Shown here: positions 8,141 through 17,575 of the stretch, piece by piece
How positions within the stretch are numbered: the first letter of the stretch is position 1
Layout: every line of letters starts with the position of its first letter
Origin: Myxococcota bacterium
GTDB taxonomy: Bacteria; Myxococcota_A; UBA9160; UBA4427
Assembly (NCBI GenBank): GCA_965250285.1
Contig: OZ252299.1
Location: 1,088,001 to 1,152,000 of the forward strand
Reading direction: 5' to 3'
DNA: 64,000 nucleotides
Translations under genes and position numbers: made by a program
The notes under the pieces: model-generated
The model's input: only the letters and a program-made list of their open reading frames with translations
What the model was told of the DNA's origin: nothing
Database searches by the model: none

Positions 8141-8157
8141 GGAGCCTTTGCCCGGTT

Positions 8158-8421
8158 CGCGGTGCCAGGGCCGGGGCAGGCGGGGGCACCGTGCTCGGAC
8201 ATTCTCGGCGCGACCTGACTGGGAAGCTCCGATGTTGCGCACGTCGCGCCTGCGAACTGCGCGCGGTACCCCCGACTGCCCCGGCCGCGGTCCGCGGTGC
8301 CAGGGCCGGGGCAGGCGGGGGCACCGTGCTCGGACATTCTCGGCGCGACCTGACTGGGAAGCTCCGATGTTGCGCACGTCGCGCCTGCGAACTGCGCTCG
8401 GTACCCCCGACTGCCCCGGCC
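8158..8421. repeat. Two tandem copies (135-bp period) of a 129-bp element with 23-bp imperfect inverted repeats (REP/MITE-like)
   Basis: 8158-8286 and 8293-8421 differ at one base; arms GGCCGGGGCAGGCGGGGGCACCG and CGGTACCCCCGACTGCCCCGGCC. Confidence 0.9.
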
Positions 8422-8733
8422 TCGGGACGCTTCGGTCACAGCGCAGCACGCGTCCTCATGTGAGCCCCGGGGTGGCTGTTCGATCCGGAGCGCGTGCATG
8501 TCCCGCCCCTTCGGGCGAGTCGAGATCCGCTTTCTTCCGAGTCCGCTGGGCCTCGTCGCGGGGCATGCAACGAGATGGCCCGATCGACGCGCGGAGCGTC
8601 GATCGGGCGGTGGATCAGCGCGCGGGCATCCGGCGGCTCCCCCCGGAGTCGGCCACCCTGGCCTGTGCCGGCTTGCCCGCGCGCGATCGGCTCGTTTCGC
8701 GCACCTCAGGCCAGCGAATAGGCGCGGCCCGGG

Positions 8734-9816
8734 TTAGGCCCCGGCCTGCGCGACGGCCTGCCCGCCCGCCTTGGGGCGGTTCGGCTCACGCGAGAGCAGC
8801 AGCAGGGGCTGGTTGAACTCGCGCTGCTTGCTGCGGATCGTGTGCGCCCGCTTCCGAACCCACTGCACGTTCCGCCGATGACCGAGCGCGCGCGCGATCT
8901 CGGGCCCGGTGGGCGGATGCGCGCGGCGTTCGACCAGGTCGAGGTAGGCCGTGAGGAACTCGCGCTCGTGGCTCGTCCACTCGGGCTCGGTCTGGATCCC
9001 GCGCAGCCACTTCGACATCTGGCCCTTGAGCACCAGCGGGAGCTGACGCGCCTCGATCTGCTTCCACCGGATGTTGTGCACGAGCACGTGCACGCCGGTG
9101 CGATCGACGTCGCCGAGCACGGCCGCGATCTCTTCGGCCGAAGGGAACGCTCCGCCGTTCTGCTCGACCAGCGTGAGGTAGGCCTCGGCGACCCGAACCT
9201 CCTTCGGCGTGAGCAGGCGCGTCTCGGCCGCCTCTCGCAGCGCCTCGGTCACGAGGTTCGCCAGCGGGACCGGCTGCGGATTCTGCCGGAAGTGGCGGAT
9301 GTGTCCCGCCTCATGGTCGGTGCCGCGCAGGCCGAGCCCCTCGCGAACGCACTCGATGATCTCGTCTGCACCGTGCTGGGTCGCGGCATTGTTGCGATTG
9401 AGATCGATGACGACCGCGAGACCCGAGAAGAGGTAGTCGTCGATGCGATACGCGATGGCCCCCGCCGCTGAGCTCGGCGGTTCGACGAACGCGACGAAGA
9501 GATCGCCGACTCGCACGCCGTCCTCGGGCTTCGCTTCGAGATCGACGGGCCCCTGGGCTGCATCGTCGGTCACCCGAGGCGCGACGCGGCGCGCGCCGAG
9601 CCCGGCGCGCAGCTTCAGCGCACCGGCGCGGACGACCGGGTCGTGGCTCGTCTCGAGCGTGTGCGTGAGCGAGAGGTCGAGGTCTTCGACCGCCTGGAGC
9701 ACCTGGTCGACCACGTCTTCGTGGGGGTCGATCACGGCCGCACGGCGCGTGTCGCTGCAGGCGACGACGTAGGCGTGGCGGCCATCGGTACCGACGTTGA
9801 ACTGGCGAAAGATCAT
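8734..9816 (-). CDS. Degenerate MBL-fold (ETHE1/persulfide dioxygenase-like) domain fused to two LexA-like wHTH repeats; putative regulator
   Basis: MIFRQF..YVVAC..AAVIDP..THTLET N-terminus lacking HxHxDH; C-terminal repeats LTPKE..FPSAEEIAAVLG and WTSHE..PPTGPEIARALG; AGGAGG RBS. Confidence 0.75.
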   Translation of the reverse strand: MIFRQFNVGTDGRHAYVVACSDTRRAAVIDPHEDVVDQVLQAVEDLDLSLTHTLETSHDPVVRAGALKLRAGLGARRVAPRVTDDAAQGPVDLEAKPEDGVRVGDLFVAFVEPPSSAAGAIAYRIDDYLFSGLAVVIDLNRNNAATQHGADEIIECVREGLGLRGTDHEAGHIRHFRQNPQPVPLANLVTEALREAAETRLLTPKEVRVAEAYLTLVEQNGGAFPSAEEIAAVLGDVDRTGVHVLVHNIRWKQIEARQLPLVLKGQMSKWLRGIQTEPEWTSHEREFLTAYLDLVERRAHPPTGPEIARALGHRRNVQWVRKRAHTIRSKQREFNQPLLLLSREPNRPKAGGQAVAQAGA

Positions 9817-9911
9817 TGGGACTTCCTCCTGAAAGGCGGCGCGGCCCTGCCGCGTCGTCCCCGCTCCAGCGGGCTCCTTGCCCGCCCTGGCCGTGGGGCA
9901 CCCGCCGAATT

Positions 9912-9927
9912 TGCAGCGAACGTGCCA
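9912..9927 (-). promoter_or_regulatory. Sigma54 (-24/-12) promoter for the MBL-wHTH gene
   Basis: Minus strand reads TGGCACGTTCGCTGCA against consensus TGGCACG-N4-TTGCW, about 95 bp upstream of the start codon. Confidence 0.7.
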
Positions 9928-9993
9928 AGCCCGCAGATCGGCGATTTCTCAGGAATTTCAAGCATTTGCGGGAATGCACGAAATGGTCCGCAC

Positions 9994-10009
9994 TGGCTGA
10001 TTTCAGCCA
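9994..10009. promoter_or_regulatory. Palindrome, candidate enhancer-binding (UAS) site
   Basis: TGGCTGA-TT-TCAGCCA perfect inverted repeat about 70 bp upstream of the -24 box. Confidence 0.45.
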
Positions 10010-10189
10010 TCTGCGTGAATTCGCGGTGCATCCCAACCAGTGGGGCGCGGCCTCAAGCCGGCTTCTCTGCAGGCCGATTTCGATGATCGGGATCGTGCGA
10101 CGCCCGGCCGCCGCGCCGTCGATGAACGGTGCGGTGCGGGCGCCTGCGGGCGCGCGGCGTGAGCCGCTCCGCGTCCAGGGAGGTGCACC

Positions 10190-11060: not shown

Positions 11061-11768
11061 ATGAACGAGGGATCGCTCCACTCGACGTCATGGGCTGGCC
11101 GGGTCGCGCTCGCTGCGCTGGCCACCGCGATCGCGTTCGCGGTCGGTTGTCAGACGGGACCGCCCCCCACGCCCATCGACCGCGCGCACACCGCATTCGA
11201 CGCCGGCGACCTCGAAGCGGCGTTCGCCCTCTACGAAGAAGCTGCGCGGACACAGCCCCAGCGCCGGGCGGAGGCCCTGCACGGGGCCGCCCGCGTGCGG
11301 ACCCTGCGCCGCGATCCCGAGCGCGCGCTCGCGCTCTACCGGGCCGTGGCGAAGGCCGACGGTGACTACTTCACCGCCGCCGCGCGCGGTGACTACGCGC
11401 AGACGCTGCTGCTCGCAGGTCAGATGCGTCTCGAGGCCGACGAGCTCGCGGCATCGATCGACGCGCTCGAGGCCCTGCATCGGATCGATCCCGACTACCC
11501 GGGCCTCTCGAAGGCACTCGCCCAGGCGTGGACCGCGCACGGTGAGCAGCTGTCGATGCACGGACGGCGGACCGAGGCGATGGCGCGATTCGAGGGCGCC
11601 ATGGCGCTGCGTCCCCAGGCGGCCGAAGCGTGGATCGGGGCCGCCGAGATCCTCATCGCGACGGGCCGAAAGAAGGAGGCGCTCGCGCTGCTCTCGAACG
11701 CCAGTCGGTACAACCCCAGCGATGGCCGGGTGCGCGCCCTGACCGTTCAAGCGATGGGTGTCTACTGA
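11061..11768 (+). CDS. Tetratricopeptide-repeat lipoprotein
   Basis: Lipobox AVGC; TPR-like repeats (AMALRPQAAEAWIGAAEILIATGRKKEA). Confidence 0.8.
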   Translation: MNEGSLHSTSWAGRVALAALATAIAFAVGCQTGPPPTPIDRAHTAFDAGDLEAAFALYEEAARTQPQRRAEALHGAARVRTLRRDPERALALYRAVAKADGDYFTAAARGDYAQTLLLAGQMRLEADELAASIDALEALHRIDPDYPGLSKALAQAWTAHGEQLSMHGRRTEAMARFEGAMALRPQAAEAWIGAAEILIATGRKKEALALLSNASRYNPSDGRVRALTVQAMGVY

Positions 11769-11814
11769 CCGAGTGCATCCACGGCGCCGCCGTGGTGTCG
11801 ATTCAGCTGCTGCG

Positions 11815-13065
11815 ATGATCAACGTGTCCGACCCCTCCGATCGCCCTCCGAACGATGCGTCCAAAGCCGCCCCGCGCGGTTTGTCGGGCCAGGTGCATCC
11901 CGACTTCGCGCCGGTCGCCAACCTGCTGCGACGACAGCTGGCTCGAAAGCGAGGCGCCGGCGCCGCGATCTGCGTGATCCATCGCGGCGAGTGCGTCGTC
12001 GACATCTGGGGTGGTGCGCGCGACGTGGCTGGCCGCCCGTGGGAGCGCGACACGCTCGCGCTCTCGTTCTCGACGACGAAGGGGGTGGTCGCCACGCTGC
12101 TTCATGTACTCGTCGACCGAGGGGCGCTCGACTACGACGACCGGGTCGCGACGCACTGGCCCGAGTTCGCGGCCGGCGGCAAGGAGGCGATCACCGTTCG
12201 TCAGCTGCTGGCGCATCAGGCGGGGCTCTACGACGTGCGCGGCCTCGTCGCTCACGCGAGTGAGTTGCTCGACTGGGAGCACATGGTGACGACCCTCGAG
12301 GCCGCGTCGCCTGCGCACGCGCCGGGTGCGCACCACGGCTACCACGGCCTCACCTGGGGCTGGCTTGTCGGCGAGCTGATCCGCCGCGTCTCGGGCAGCG
12401 GCGTCTCGGAGGGGGTGCAGGCCGAGATCGCGCGGCCGCTGCGCCTCGACGGGCTCTACGTCGGTCGATTGCCTGCCGACGCGCGACTGCGCCGCGCCGA
12501 TCTGCTCGATCACCGAATGGGGACGCAGCCCCTCGAGGCCGCGCGCCGCCAGGCGAGACGACTCGGACGGGGGCTGCGCGCGGTAGGCGCGCCGTTCGAC
12601 GTGTCGTGTCTCGAGGGGGCGTTGCTGCCGCCCGGGATCGAAGAGCTCGACTGGAACTCGGACGCGATCGCCGATGCCTGTATCCCCGCGGCGAACGGCT
12701 ACTTCGACGCGCGGTCGCTGGCGCGCATGTACGCGGTGCTGGCGGCCGGCGGGGAACGCGACGGCGTGAAGCTCGTGCGGCCCGAGACCCAGGAGCGGTT
12801 CGCGCAGGTGCAGATGCGCGGCCTCGGTCGCGTGGTGCCCTTCCCGATGAACTGGCGGCTCGGCTACCACCGCATTCCCGTGCCGGGGCGCGTCGGGCCG
12901 CGGCCCTTCGGCCATTTCGGCTTCGGGGGCTCGGGCGCCTGGGCGGATCCGCAACGCGATCTGGCCGTCGCCTGCGTGCTGAACTCGGGCGTGGGCACGC
13001 CCTTCGCCGACACGCGCATCGTGCGGCTCGGCGTGACGGCATCGCGCATCGCCGACCGGCGGTAG
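11815..13065 (+). CDS. Serine hydrolase, beta-lactamase class C / EstA family
   Basis: FSTTKG (SxxK), LLAHQAG, YHG and FGHFGFGGS motifs; start codon uncertain. Confidence 0.9.
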   Translation: MINVSDPSDRPPNDASKAAPRGLSGQVHPDFAPVANLLRRQLARKRGAGAAICVIHRGECVVDIWGGARDVAGRPWERDTLALSFSTTKGVVATLLHVLVDRGALDYDDRVATHWPEFAAGGKEAITVRQLLAHQAGLYDVRGLVAHASELLDWEHMVTTLEAASPAHAPGAHHGYHGLTWGWLVGELIRRVSGSGVSEGVQAEIARPLRLDGLYVGRLPADARLRRADLLDHRMGTQPLEAARRQARRLGRGLRAVGAPFDVSCLEGALLPPGIEELDWNSDAIADACIPAANGYFDARSLARMYAVLAAGGERDGVKLVRPETQERFAQVQMRGLGRVVPFPMNWRLGYHRIPVPGRVGPRPFGHFGFGGSGAWADPQRDLAVACVLNSGVGTPFADTRIVRLGVTASRIADRR

Positions 13066-13095
13066 GCCCGGCGGCACGCCCGAGGCGAGGTCGGG

Positions 13096-13932
13096 TTACT
13101 GGCTCTTGACCTCGACGCGCACCGGGATCCAGCGGTTCAGCACCTGGTCGAGCTGGCCGCTCTCGCGCCACGTGTCGAGCAGCCCGTTCAGCTGGTCGAC
13201 CAGCTCGGGGTCGCTCTTCGACACGGCCCACGCGAGCGATTCATTGGTGAGCGGCGTGTAGAGCCCCATCAGCTCGCGCTCGTCGATCCCGGCGCCGATC
13301 CGCCAGACGGTCGGGGCGTCGTGGACGAACGCGTCGATGCGCCGCGCGCGCAGGTTGCGCACGCCCTCTTCGACGGTCGAGAACGCGTACGACTCGGCGT
13401 TGCCGAGGTGTTCGGCGACGTAGGCCTCGCCGGTCGTGCCGTCGACATAGCCGATGCGGACGCCCGGCTTGCGCAGGGCGTTCGGCGCCGAGAGTTGCTG
13501 GAGGTCTTCGATGCGGATCAGCGCGAGCTGTCCGACCTGCAGATACGGTTGCGTGAAGAGCACCTGGCTGGCTCGCTCGGGTGTGATCGAGATGCCCGAC
13601 ATCGCGACGTCGACGATCCCCGTCCGCACCGCCGGGATGAGCTCTTGTCGCGTCATCGGCACGTACTCGATGCCCCGGCCGAGAGCGACCGACACGCCCG
13701 TCGCGAGCTCGGCCTCGACCCCCATCATCTCTCCGTCTTGCTCGAAGATGATCGGCGGGTAGTAGGGCGCCACGCCGATGCGCAGGGCCGGCTGGCCCTT
13801 CGAGTTCGATCGGCCTGCGCAGCCACTCAGGACTGCGACGGCGGTGAGCGCAACGAGGACGAGGGCGCCGATGTGGACGATCGGCCTCGTACGACATTCG
13901 GTGGCGGCGGGGCGCGGACTCGAGGGGCGCAT
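13096..13932 (-). CDS. Amino-acid ABC-type substrate-binding lipoprotein (family 3)
   Basis: Lipobox LSGC; YPP, ISITPER, FTQPY and DAFVHD motifs; no adjacent permease. Confidence 0.88.
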   Translation of the reverse strand: MRPSSPRPAATECRTRPIVHIGALVLVALTAVAVLSGCAGRSNSKGQPALRIGVAPYYPPIIFEQDGEMMGVEAELATGVSVALGRGIEYVPMTRQELIPAVRTGIVDVAMSGISITPERASQVLFTQPYLQVGQLALIRIEDLQQLSAPNALRKPGVRIGYVDGTTGEAYVAEHLGNAESYAFSTVEEGVRNLRARRIDAFVHDAPTVWRIGAGIDERELMGLYTPLTNESLAWAVSKSDPELVDQLNGLLDTWRESGQLDQVLNRWIPVRVEVKSQ

Positions 13933-14109
13933 GACGTCTCCTGCGGCAGAGCGGGGGCGCTCCTAGTCTCCCGCATCCCGAGCGATTGGAAAGGGGGCGG
14001 GCCGCCGCAGCGGGTCTCTTCGGGTGCTTTCGCCCCGGCCAGCGGGTACGCTCGGAAGCCCGCCGCGCCGCGACGGAGCGGTCGCGCGAGGGGAGGGGGG
14101 CGAGCCCAG

Positions 14110-14877
14110 ATGATCAAGCTGTGCTGTTTCGTGAAGCGCAAGCCCGGCATGGACCGAGACGCATTTCACAGCCACTGGCTCGAGTCCCATGGCCCGCTGA
14201 TCCGCGACACGCCCGAGCTCGCCGATCCGCTCCTTCGCTACGAGCAGAACCATCGACTCGATGCCGACTACGAGCGCGATCCCGATGGCTTCGATGGCGT
14301 GACGATGCAGTGGTTCGCCTCGTTCGAAGACTTCACCGCCTTCGTGGCCTCGGACGCCTATCGCGACGTGCTGTCGCACGATGAAGCGAGCTTTCTCGAT
14401 CGCGCAAATCTTGCGCTGATCTTCGCCGGGCCGGCGAATCGAGTCATCGTCGACCCGGCCGCGCGCGCGGCCGCCGGCACGAAGCTGCTCTGTCTGCTGA
14501 CACGCCAGCCGAAGCTCTCGGCCGAGGCGTTCCACGCGCACTGGCGCTCGCCCCACGGCGAGCTGTTTCGCGACACCGAGACGCTCGCCCGGCACATCGC
14601 GGCCTACGAGCAGCACCCGCGGAGCGCACACGACTACGGGCGCGCAGGGGGCGGCGACGGGCTCGCGGAGCAGTGGTATCGCGATCTCGACGCGTTCGCG
14701 GCGTTCGTGCGCGAGCCGGCCCAGGCGGAACTGATCCGGCCCGACGAGGATCGATTCATCGACCGGGCGGCGATCCGGTACGTCCTGACGGGCCCGGCCG
14801 ACGTCATCATCGACGACCACGACCACGACCGCGACGCGCTCGAAGCCGGCGCGGTCGAATCGGAGTCCCAGGCATGA
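14110..14877 (+). CDS. Tandem EthD-domain (dimeric alpha/beta barrel) protein
   Basis: Two repeats: KRKPGMDRDAFHSHWLESHGPL..YEQNH..FDGV and RQPKLSAEAFHAHWRSPHG..YEQH..DG. Confidence 0.85.
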   Translation: MIKLCCFVKRKPGMDRDAFHSHWLESHGPLIRDTPELADPLLRYEQNHRLDADYERDPDGFDGVTMQWFASFEDFTAFVASDAYRDVLSHDEASFLDRANLALIFAGPANRVIVDPAARAAAGTKLLCLLTRQPKLSAEAFHAHWRSPHGELFRDTETLARHIAAYEQHPRSAHDYGRAGGGDGLAEQWYRDLDAFAAFVREPAQAELIRPDEDRFIDRAAIRYVLTGPADVIIDDHDHDRDALEAGAVESESQA

Positions 14878-14929
14878 GCGAAGAGAAGCCCAAGTCGGAG
14901 TCCCAGGCATGAGCGAAGAGAAGCCCAAG
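14860..14929 (+). repeat. Exact 35-bp tandem duplication spanning the EthD stop and pepN start
   Basis: TCGGAGTCCCAGGCATGAGCGAAGAGAAGCCCAAG at 14860-14894 and 14895-14929. Confidence 0.95.
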
Positions 14930-17575
14930 GCAGTCCACCGACTCGACTACACGCCGCCCGACTACACGATCGACACGGTCGACCTCGACTTCGATCTCGG
15001 CGAGCACGAGACGATCGTACGCGCCTCGCTCGGCGTCCGGCGCAACCCCGACCTGCGCGGCGACGCGCCGCCGCTCGTCCTCGACGGCGAGCATCTCGAA
15101 CTGCGCCGCATCGCGATCGACGGGGCCGAGCTGCCGACTTCGCAGTGGCACGAGGCGGACGACAAGCTCAGCGTGGATCGATGCCCCGAGCGCTTCACGC
15201 TCGAGACCGAGGTGCGCATCCTGCCGCACGAGAACACCGCGCTGTCGGGGCTGTACAAGAGCGGCTCGATGTACTGCACGCAGTGCGAGGCCATGGGCTT
15301 TCGCCGCATCACGTACTTCCTCGACCGACCGGACGTGATGGCGCGGTACAGCACCACGATCACGGCCGATGCCGAGCGGTATCCGATCCTCCTCTCGAAC
15401 GGCAATCGCGTCGACGTCGAGACGGGCCTCGACGGGGGGCGGCACCGCGTCCGTTGGGAAGACCCGTTCAAGAAGCCCTCGTACCTCTTCGCGCTGGTGG
15501 CCGGCGACCTGCGCTGCCACGAGGGCGTCTTCACGACCCGATCGGGCCGAGACGTCAAGCTCGAGATCTGGGTCGAGCCCGAGAACATCGAGAAGTGCGA
15601 GCACGCGCTCGGTTCACTGCAGCGTGCGATGAAGTGGGACGAGGACGTGTTCGGGCTCGAGTACGACCTCGACATCTACATGATCGTCGCGGTCAACGAC
15701 TTCAACATGGGTGCGATGGAGAACAAGGGGCTGAACGTCTTCAATTCGAAGTACGTGCTCGCGAAGCCCGACACGGCGACCGACACCGACTACGAGGGGA
15801 TCGAAGGCGTCATCGGCCACGAGTACTTCCACAACTGGACCGGCAATCGCGTGACCTGCCGCGACTGGTTTCAGCTCACGTTGAAGGAGGGGCTCACGGT
15901 CTTTCGCGATCAGCAGTTCAGCGGCGACATGGGGAGCGCCGCGGTCAAGCGCATCGACGAGGTGAATCTGCTGCGCGCCGCGCAGTTCCCCGAGGACGCG
16001 GGGCCGATGTCGCACCCGATCCGGCCCGAGTCGTACATCTCGATGGACAACTTCTACACGGCGACCGTCTACAACAAGGGCGCCGAAGTGATCCGCATGT
16101 ACCACACGCTGCTCGGCGCCGACGGTTTTCGCCGCGGCATGGATCTCTACTTCGAGCGCCATGACGGCGACGCCGTGACCTGCGACGACTTTCGGGCCGC
16201 CATGGCCGATGCGAACGACCGCGACCTCGAGCTGTTCGGGCGCTGGTACAGCCAGCCCGGTACGCCCGAGCTGCACGCGACCGAGTCGTTCGATGGGGCG
16301 ACCGGGACCTACGCGCTCACCCTGCGCCAGGCCTACCCCGAGGCGGCGCATCCCGTCGAGGGGGCGACCGATCGCAGGCCGCTCCACATGCCGGTGGCCA
16401 CTGGCCTGCTCGGCGCCGACGGGGCCGATCTGGCGTTGCGGCTAGAGGGCGAGGCGCGACCCTCGGCGCCGGGAACGCGTGTGCTCGAGCTGACCGAGGC
16501 CGAGCAGACCTTCGTCTTCGAGGGGCTCGGGGTGTCGGAGAAGCCCGTCGCTTCGCTGCTGCGCGACTTCTCGGCGCCGGTGCGGCTGCGCATGGATCGG
16601 CCGCGCGCCGAGCTGGCGTTCCTCTTCGGGCACGACGTTGACCCCTTCAACCGCTGGGAGGCGGGGCAGACGCTGGCGACCGAGCTGCTGCTCGAGGCAG
16701 CGCCGGTGATCGACGGGCATCCCGACTACACGTTCGACCCGGTCTTCGTCGATGCGATCGGCAAGGTCCTTGCCGACGAGACGCTCGATGGCTCGCTCAA
16801 GGCGCTGGCGCTCACGCTGCCGGCCGAGCGCATCGTCGGCCAGGAGATGGACGTCATCGATCCGACCGGTGTGCATCTCGCCCGGGAGGCGCTGCGCCGG
16901 TCCGTCGGGTCTGCGCACGCCGACGCCCTGCGCGCGGCCTACGAGGCGCGCAGCGGCGCGGTCTACTCGAACGACCGCGCGGCGATCGACGACCGCCGTC
17001 TCAAGAACGCCGCGCTCGCGTATCTCGCGGTGACGGGCGCAGAGGGGCTCGCGCTCGCCGAGGCGCAGTACGATGCGGCCGACAACATGACCGACTCGGC
17101 GGCGGCGCTCTCGTTGCTGGTCGACTTCGAAGGCGAGGCGCGCGACCGGGCACTGGCCCACTTCTACGAGCGCTGGCAGCACGACCCCCTGGTGGTGGAC
17201 AAGTGGTTCACCGTGCAGGCCATGTCGCGGGCGGCCGACACGATCGAACGCGTCCAGACGCTGCAGTCGCACCCGGCCTTCGGCCTCGACAACCCCAACC
17301 GCGTCCGATCGCTCGTCGCCTCCTTCTGCGCGGGCAACGCGGTGCACTTCCACCGCCTCGACGGGGCGGGCTACGACCTGCTCGCCGAGACGGTGCTCGA
17401 GCTCGACGGTCGGAACCCACAGCTCGCAGCGCGACTCGTGTCGGTGTTCAATCAGTGGCAGCGCTACGACACGGAGCGCCAGGCGCTGATGGGCGCGCGG
17501 CTACGGCGCATCGCCGACAAACCCGGGCTTTCGAAGGATGTCTTCGAGATCGTCGGCCGGGCGCTCGGCGACTGA
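14909..17575 (+). CDS. pepN: Aminopeptidase N (M1)
   Basis: GAMENKGLN, HEYFHNWTGNRVTCRDWFQLTLKEG and YNKGAEV motifs. Confidence 0.97.
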   Translation: MSEEKPKAVHRLDYTPPDYTIDTVDLDFDLGEHETIVRASLGVRRNPDLRGDAPPLVLDGEHLELRRIAIDGAELPTSQWHEADDKLSVDRCPERFTLETEVRILPHENTALSGLYKSGSMYCTQCEAMGFRRITYFLDRPDVMARYSTTITADAERYPILLSNGNRVDVETGLDGGRHRVRWEDPFKKPSYLFALVAGDLRCHEGVFTTRSGRDVKLEIWVEPENIEKCEHALGSLQRAMKWDEDVFGLEYDLDIYMIVAVNDFNMGAMENKGLNVFNSKYVLAKPDTATDTDYEGIEGVIGHEYFHNWTGNRVTCRDWFQLTLKEGLTVFRDQQFSGDMGSAAVKRIDEVNLLRAAQFPEDAGPMSHPIRPESYISMDNFYTATVYNKGAEVIRMYHTLLGADGFRRGMDLYFERHDGDAVTCDDFRAAMADANDRDLELFGRWYSQPGTPELHATESFDGATGTYALTLRQAYPEAAHPVEGATDRRPLHMPVATGLLGADGADLALRLEGEARPSAPGTRVLELTEAEQTFVFEGLGVSEKPVASLLRDFSAPVRLRMDRPRAELAFLFGHDVDPFNRWEAGQTLATELLLEAAPVIDGHPDYTFDPVFVDAIGKVLADETLDGSLKALALTLPAERIVGQEMDVIDPTGVHLAREALRRSVGSAHADALRAAYEARSGAVYSNDRAAIDDRRLKNAALAYLAVTGAEGLALAEAQYDAADNMTDSAAALSLLVDFEGEARDRALAHFYERWQHDPLVVDKWFTVQAMSRAADTIERVQTLQSHPAFGLDNPNRVRSLVASFCAGNAVHFHRLDGAGYDLLAETVLELDGRNPQLAARLVSVFNQWQRYDTERQALMGARLRRIADKPGLSKDVFEIVGRALGD

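Follow-up and report, generated by a model that had tools for sequence, protein, structure and literature searches.

A Dead, Truncated Persulfide-dioxygenase Fold Joined to Two Helix-Turn-Helix Repeats: A Probable Second-tier Transcription Factor in Myxococcota

RESULTS

A PDO-like Domain Fused to Two HTH Repeats

Within a 64,000-nucleotide stretch of Myxococcota DNA (the window, meaning the whole stretch that was analysed) we find a gene for a protein, P0001, in which a catalytically dead persulfide dioxygenase (PDO)-like domain is joined by a variable linker to two helix-turn-helix (HTH) repeats. This architecture is real and conserved and, as a first-pass annotation of the same DNA had proposed, undescribed: a literature search that mostly covered papers outside subscription journals found neither a transcription factor on the metallo-β-lactamase (MBL) fold nor a tandem LexA-like protein. 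P0001 is probably a second-tier DNA-binding transcription factor, the output of a cascade that runs from a sensor kinase through an enhancer-binding protein to sigma54. Its gene and domains are arranged as follows.

9825..9829, minus strand: ribosome-binding site GGAGG, recognized from the sequence
8734..9816, minus strand: open reading frame of 360 amino acids (P0001), with dead PDO-like domain, variable linker and two HTH repeats
9406..9816, minus strand: residues 1-137, truncated, metal-less PDO fold (type I, ETHE1-like), from sequence and fold match; dN/dS 0.10-0.51
9271..9405, minus strand: residues 138-182, variable, low-confidence linker; pLDDT <50 for 139-182, column identity 0.36
9022..9213, minus strand: HTH repeat 1, residues ~202-265, third helix DRTGVHVLVHNIRWKQ; conservation of 90% or more at 24 of 70 positions
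8788..8982, minus strand: HTH repeat 2, residues ~279-343, third helix VQWVRKRAHTIRSKQ strongly basic; conservation of 90% or more at 32 of 75 positions

The start codon is ATG, and contigs from three public runs of one study, which is possibly the source, cover the stretch without a difference. In the structure model of P0001, residues 1-137 are folded and residues 139-182 disordered; the linker is shorter in a 313-residue paralogue. No Pfam or NCBIfam family reached its cut-off with P0001, and domain searches that included the other family members detected no S24 peptidase or self-cleavage domain, the chain stopping after repeat 2, in agreement with the earlier remark that the LexA peptidase domain is absent.

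The N-terminal Domain Is a Dead and Shortened PDO

Residues 1-143 match the Myxococcus ETHE1 structure 4YSB in sequence (phmmer E 2.2e-12), and the N-domain matches it in fold (Foldseek E 2.2e-9, root mean square deviation 2.4 Å, 129 columns), which upholds the assignment of the first ~140 residues to the PDO/ETHE1 type. What that assignment overlooked is the truncation of the enzyme domain: the MBL fold with the type I PDO sequence pattern is present for residues 1-137 only, the PDO match ends near residue 140, and on a 226-position PDO profile the match of the homologues breaks off between positions 110 and 179. An ESM Atlas search with the homologue P0026 returned MBL clusters only, all sub-0.9. 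An alignment of repeat 1 on the C-terminal helix of the PDO was forced and of low confidence, and it was dropped.

The iron ligands of PDO are His57, His113 and Asp130, and its glutathione contacts are Arg139, Tyr173, Arg190 and Lys212, the residue roles being those given in the accessible part of PMC6060420. P0001 has Ser, Ser and Leu at the three iron-ligand positions, and the broken motifs reported earlier (ETSHDPVV, PPSS and SGL) were found in all three cases. Across the 67 full-length homologues His57, His113 and Asp130 are retained in 9, 3 and 12 sequences, respectively, and the His of the second motif in none, while Arg139, Tyr173, Arg190 and Lys212 are retained in 3, 1, 0 and 0; the region that would hold the equivalents of the last three is unaligned or deleted, leaving essentially no counterparts. 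Nor does the full-length alignment contain a conserved cysteine, with no column exceeding 30 of 67. The PDO-type domain is catalytically dead and shortened, and its metal and glutathione sites are lost.

Conservation of 90% or more is confined to 16 of the 140 N-domain positions, almost all of them ordinary structural PDO residues, with Tyr39, Pro80 and Tyr128 as the sole family-specific positions among them. The former active-site loops vary freely across the family, and no conserved or replacement pocket is seen in the sequence conservation of the N-domain. Given this structural conservation and the dN/dS values reported below, the fold of the N-domain is under selection, whereas a persulfide pocket is not supported because the iron ligands, the glutathione half and a conserved cysteine are all absent. 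The ligand or redox sensing that the first-pass annotation had ascribed to the PDO fold is thus not supported: the glutathione-binding region is gone, Arg139 survives in 3 of 67 homologues, and the conserved positions are structural. Enzyme folds are commonly reused as sensor domains, and the retention of the N-domain under purifying selection in every full-length homologue would suit a DNA binder controlled by some other small molecule or a metal bound to the dead domain; with so few conserved positions, nearly all of them structural, and with variable active-site loops, we consider such control unlikely. A homodimer prediction for residues 1-345 (score 0.00, mark 0.42) speaks neither for nor against a dimer; ETHE1 is a dimer according to the available portion of PMC4383860.

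The Repeats Resemble LexA N-domains and Are Predicted to Bind DNA

The internal duplication noted earlier in the C-terminal half is borne out by a profile comparison of repeat 1 with repeat 2 (probability 94.7, E 6e-8, 63 columns), with a period of 78 residues where about 75 had been given. Each repeat is modelled as a three-helix HTH unit, and neither model has a β-hairpin wing, confidence in that region being moderate. The repeats are the most conserved part of the protein and contain invariant basic residues; in repeat 2 the mean net charge over residues 315-331 is +6.8.

By fold, the repeats match the HTH domains of sigma region 4, LuxR, DtxR, Fur and LexA with Z up to 7.4, all of them below 8, a level that the tool calls common, and the match to LexA 3K2Z (Z 5.6, root mean square deviation 1.9, 57 residues aligned) is tied with many other HTH families. 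Foldseek with the C-terminal model returned nothing at E 0.001, the ESM Atlas gave no usable match for residues 183-345, and the repeat profile found nothing in the PDB better than E 0.38, with LexA at 0.48. Pfam LexA_DNA_bind scores 13.4 bits on P0001 against a cut-off of 23.7 and matches 4 of 28 family members (best E 0.006). The combined repeats matched a local LexA-N profile, built from five related sequences, with a probability of 92.5 (E 4.8e-7), compared with 36 for sigma70 region 4, 15 for GerE and 3.4 for the sigma54 core-binding domain; single repeats score low against the LexA-N profile (10 and 37). The LexA-N pattern that had been claimed for each copy is therefore the best of the four families tested but remains below the Pfam cut-off.

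Other fold matches of the repeats, at Z ~6, are sigma70 region 4, WhiA and the sigma54 core-binding domain. Together with a faint Sigma54_CBD match in one family member (E 0.16) and the lack of a modelled wing, these would fit repeats that contact RNA or a protein such as RNA polymerase, mimicking a sigma domain and feeding back on sigma54 transcription. The profile comparison, with 92.5 for LexA-N against 3.4 and 36 for the two sigma domains, and the basic third helices make this very unlikely in our view.

Because the third helices are conserved and basic, and because of the likeness to HTH and LexA-N domains, we infer that the repeats bind DNA. The third helices of the two repeats are unlike one another, and since the two recognition helices differ, P0001 would be expected to read an asymmetric DNA site. 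Of the "pseudo-dimeric" binder suggested before, the two HTH units per chain stand, but their recognition helices are not the same.

The Architecture Is Conserved within One Family

A word search found 31 homologues of 40-86% identity, and a profile search with the repeats found 77 proteins (120-2000 amino acids) and no other architecture. These 77 and three divergent members make up the homologue set, of which 67 are full length, all 67 with the PDO N-domain, and the rest are fragments or frameshifted; their source labels are mostly Myxococcota. The C-terminal region is present in 17 of 68 genomes of the source family, in 6 of its 19 genera, and in 9 of 401 genomes of the phylum, all within the source family. 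For five orthologue pairs dN/dS was 0.10-0.51 in the N-domain, 0.03-0.22 in the repeats and 0.34-0.94 in the linker, and P0001 is under purifying selection in these pairs. A degenerate enzyme half and a narrow range might be taken for a decaying fusion or an assembly artefact; that reading, to which we give a negligible chance, is refuted by the 31 homologues, the low dN/dS of the repeats, the conserved promoter and the contig support.

Dead PDOs also stand alone in relatives, as proteins of ~200 amino acids (~195 in loci L187-L195); with the queries used, none was found in the source genome. A quick tree places 19 fused and nine stand-alone dead domains on one side of a 97% branch, against 37 other rows, and their shared grouping is tentative because the branches are long. 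The stand-alone dead PDO is a likely intermediate in the emptying and regulatory reuse of a detoxification enzyme. In several relatives it lies between serine-hydrolase/binding-protein genes and an aminopeptidase gene; the same gene block follows the P0001 gene at 11758-17575 of the window, where an ORF at 14110-14877 takes the place of the stand-alone PDO.

The 313-residue paralogue (C1:2244059-2245000) has the same architecture and no sigma54 box. It immediately precedes a DevB/DevC-type ABC exporter cluster (C1:2244059-2249309, L063), and its upstream region contains an inverted repeat conserved in three sequences. Six contigs of 1192-1284 nucleotides (L044-L049) contain only a P0001-type gene and begin 54-80 nucleotides upstream of the start codon, an extent as for a single-gene transcript.

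The Promoter Has the Layout of a sigma54 Activator Target

The following elements lie upstream of the P0001 gene.

9912..9927, minus strand: sigma54 -24/-12 element TGGCAC-N5-CTGCA; box shared by all 19 promoters compared, sigma54 encoded in the genome
9956..9968, plus strand: IHF-like site ~41 bp upstream of the box; 13 of 18 orthologue loci match with no more than one mismatch, at -39 to -42
9994..10009, no strand assigned: proximal palindrome (-82), the first of two predicted activator (bEBP) sites; 7-bp arms, TT centre
10024..10039, no strand assigned: weaker, distal palindrome (-112), the second predicted activator site, from comparison of orthologue promoters

The promoters compared were that of the window and those of 18 of 34 fetched loci, near-duplicates, paralogues and contigs short of upstream DNA having been set aside. 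The near-consensus sigma54 box reported earlier is indeed there, and it recurs with its -24 GG and -12 GC at exact spacing in all 19 promoters; transcription is predicted to start near 9901. Two palindromes with a consensus of ~YGGYYNAWWTNRRCCR occur near -82 and -112, 30-31 bp apart, in 18 of the 19, and their motif scores 204, compared with 103-112 in three shuffles. The proximal palindrome had been described as perfect; it is present, but its arms extend for 7 bp around a TT, and it has a weaker partner at 10024-10039. We call the site at 9956..9968 IHF-like for its likeness to the IHF consensus. Enhancer-binding proteins typically act at promoters arranged in this way, with a sigma54 box, paired upstream sites and an IHF-like site, and the source genome has a sigma54 gene and ~14 enhancer-binding activators. 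The palindrome at 9994-10009 is better read as a predicted activator site than as P0001's own operator. A further motif downstream of the box, possibly autoregulatory, scored 105.9 and did not exceed the shuffles (89-107).

A link to the SOS box was also considered and rejected: the P0001 promoter scored 13.8 and that of the paralogue 7-8.7, and 177 sites in the genome score above 13.5. The source genome has its own LexA. A direct repeat of the form ~YTTTCGYC-N4-TTTCGCC lies upstream of lexA in five of five genomes (C1:174098-174144; L202-L206) and is likely the SOS box of the source lineage; its top matches in the genome precede genes that, from their sequence, we take to be radical-SAM-like (C1:3248036) and dinB/dnaE2-like (C1:2805386). 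Elsewhere in the window, at 8150-8450, a direct repeat ~120-130 nt in length lies downstream of an M20 peptidase gene, seen as duplicated text in overlapping ORF translations.

A Kinase and a Receiver-domain Activator Accompany the Gene

In the loci fetched from outside the source genus, genes for a membrane histidine kinase and a REC-AAA+-Fis activator follow the P0001-type gene, the activator being called in 14 of 15 genome loci. Among 68 family genomes, 22 encode the activator C-terminus; every one of the 17 with a P0001-type gene is among them, and in 14 of these 17 the C-terminus lies on the same contig and strand, ~3 kb downstream; the 17-genome set and the 15 fetched loci overlap, and as the genomes are related, neither these co-occurrence counts nor the regulon counts given below are independent. 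The "one-component regulator" of the first-pass annotation leaves out the conserved two-component system predicted to act upstream of P0001. In the source genome the orthologue of the activator (60% identity) lies far from the P0001 gene (C1:226739-228160), and the closest kinase (C1:1082870-1084729) matches in the kinase core only. In a genome scan with subgroup-A sites, taken from the eight promoters of the subgroup nearest to the source genome's activator, the P0001 promoter scored 30.4 and the next 13.2 among 716 box candidates. The activator is also present in three genomes that have no P0001-type gene. The kinase and activator pair occurs without a twin-HTH gene in L198 (G015), L199 (G012) and L200 (G061), and in G015 a box, with a site at -97, precedes a gene divergent from the pair.

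A Persulfide Regulon Is Improbable

A true pdo operon (C1:2291927-2295232), encoding a type II PDO, a rhodanese, TauE and a YeeE/YedE pair, is present in the source genome and is divergent from a gene for a Cys-rich PAS-AAA+-Fis activator (C1:2290427-2291797), the whole (C1:2290427-2295232; L060:6428-11233) forming a FisR-like persulfide locus with a sigma54 box. FisR regulation of pdo-type genes is described in the accessible text of PMC7315123. Our first reading was a persulfide regulon, in which a FisR-like activator would co-induce P0001 with the pdo operon and the dead PDO would sense sulfane sulfur. The pdo promoter has a palindrome pair 31 bp apart that resembles the P0001 pair, and it ranked top in two of three scans, with 29.8 against 28.5 for the P0001 promoter using pooled orthologue sites (250 candidates) and 36.7 against 23.3 using subgroup-B sites.

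With subgroup-A sites, however, the pdo promoter falls to 11.7 against 30.4. The PAS domain of the PAS activator has a strong match in only 2 of 8 orthologue-bearing genomes (24 searched; as these are drafts, a missing match need not mean absence), and the C-terminus of the activator matches in 2 of 15. This activator also has a recognition helix unlike that of the receiver-domain activator, with sites TGTTTCA-N2-TGAAAC in three genomes (source, G001 and G008), and in two genomes that carry the system no sigma54 box is present at the fetched loci of intact type I PDO genes (L149, L155). As for sensing, the P0001 family is without iron ligands, glutathione contacts and a conserved cysteine. The rarity of the PAS activator, the co-occurrence of the receiver-domain activator and the subgroup-A scan have lowered the persulfide response to a decidedly improbable reading. 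Because the PAS activator is strong in only two of the eight orthologue-bearing relatives, the receiver-domain activator is the better candidate, cross-talk between the two being possible.

Two other genes are likely co-regulated with the P0001 gene, as judged with a matrix trained solely on promoters of the P0001 gene. The first, of 118-122 amino acids, carries both box and site at all 11 of 11 loci in ten system-bearing genomes; in genomes that lack the system a box is present at 1 of 19 loci, and there the site is missing. The second is the stand-alone dead PDO, with a box in 8 of 9 loci and best site scores of 4.4-17.7. The source copy of the first gene (C1:583937-584290, 118 amino acids; relatives L157-L171, L186) encodes a helical, unannotated protein with no NCBIfam match. 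A 63-residue ORF (C1:5557968-5558159; L061:7969-8160), with no Pfam or NCBIfam match, has a conserved sigma54 box, seen also in G003 and G022, and a weak site at -111.

DISCUSSION

We propose that a membrane kinase would phosphorylate the REC-AAA+-Fis activator, which would bind the two palindromes and, with bending by IHF, drive sigma54 transcription near 9901. The two unlike recognition helices of a single P0001 chain could then read an asymmetric or directly repeated site in second-tier promoters. The weakest steps of the scheme are that the dead enzyme domain may be retained as a scaffold or protein-contact module rather than as a ligand pocket, and that P0001 may have a partner or antagonist in the dead PDO that stands alone in relatives and is probably co-regulated. 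A more far-reaching version, which we hold to be rather unlikely, is a module of dead PDOs in which one signal would induce both a transcription factor with a docking domain and a free tuning copy, with two diverged LexA-type heads per chain; if true, this would be the first transcription factor family on the MBL fold within the literature searched.

P0001 adds an unclassified transcription factor architecture, in which regulation has taken over the emptied fold of a detoxification enzyme. Now that the activator, the motif of its sites and candidate co-regulated genes have been named, a laboratory host could be used to reconstitute the circuit. The reach of these findings is that of one family of uncultured bacteria.

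Among known systems, the circuit layout resembles that of MrpAB and MrpC in Myxococcus xanthus, where, according to the accessible portions of PMC10701913 and bioRxiv 10.1101/737593, a two-component enhancer-binding system activates a transcription factor gene through two upstream sites at a putative sigma54 promoter, and MrpC has no known ligand. We use this as a working analogy and not as family membership, since MrpC is a Crp/Fnr protein in which no homology to P0001 was seen. The FisR persulfide operons of Cupriavidus and Acinetobacter, as described in the same accessible text of PMC7315123, likewise combine a sigma54 activator with pdo genes, and a similar locus lies elsewhere in the source genome; the P0001 gene, however, tracks a receiver-domain activator and kinase and not a PAS-domain activator.

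With LexA, P0001 shares the three-helix pattern LT..E....Y.....G.PPS..EIA..LG of the N-domain over ~51 columns, but it scores below the Pfam cut-off, has no modelled wing and other recognition-helix residues, and carries two copies per chain without a peptidase or cleavage domain. With the type I PDOs (ETHE1; M. xanthus 4YSB) its N-terminal 137 residues share the fold and the structural motifs, but the 2-His-1-Asp iron site and the C-terminal glutathione-binding half are missing and the domain is fused to HTH repeats. In PqsE of Pseudomonas aeruginosa, an MBL fold has a regulatory, protein-binding role that is separable from catalysis (available text of PMC12077149). PqsE, however, is an active enzyme that acts in trans on RhlR, whereas in P0001 the fold is dead, truncated and joined to the HTH repeats in one chain.
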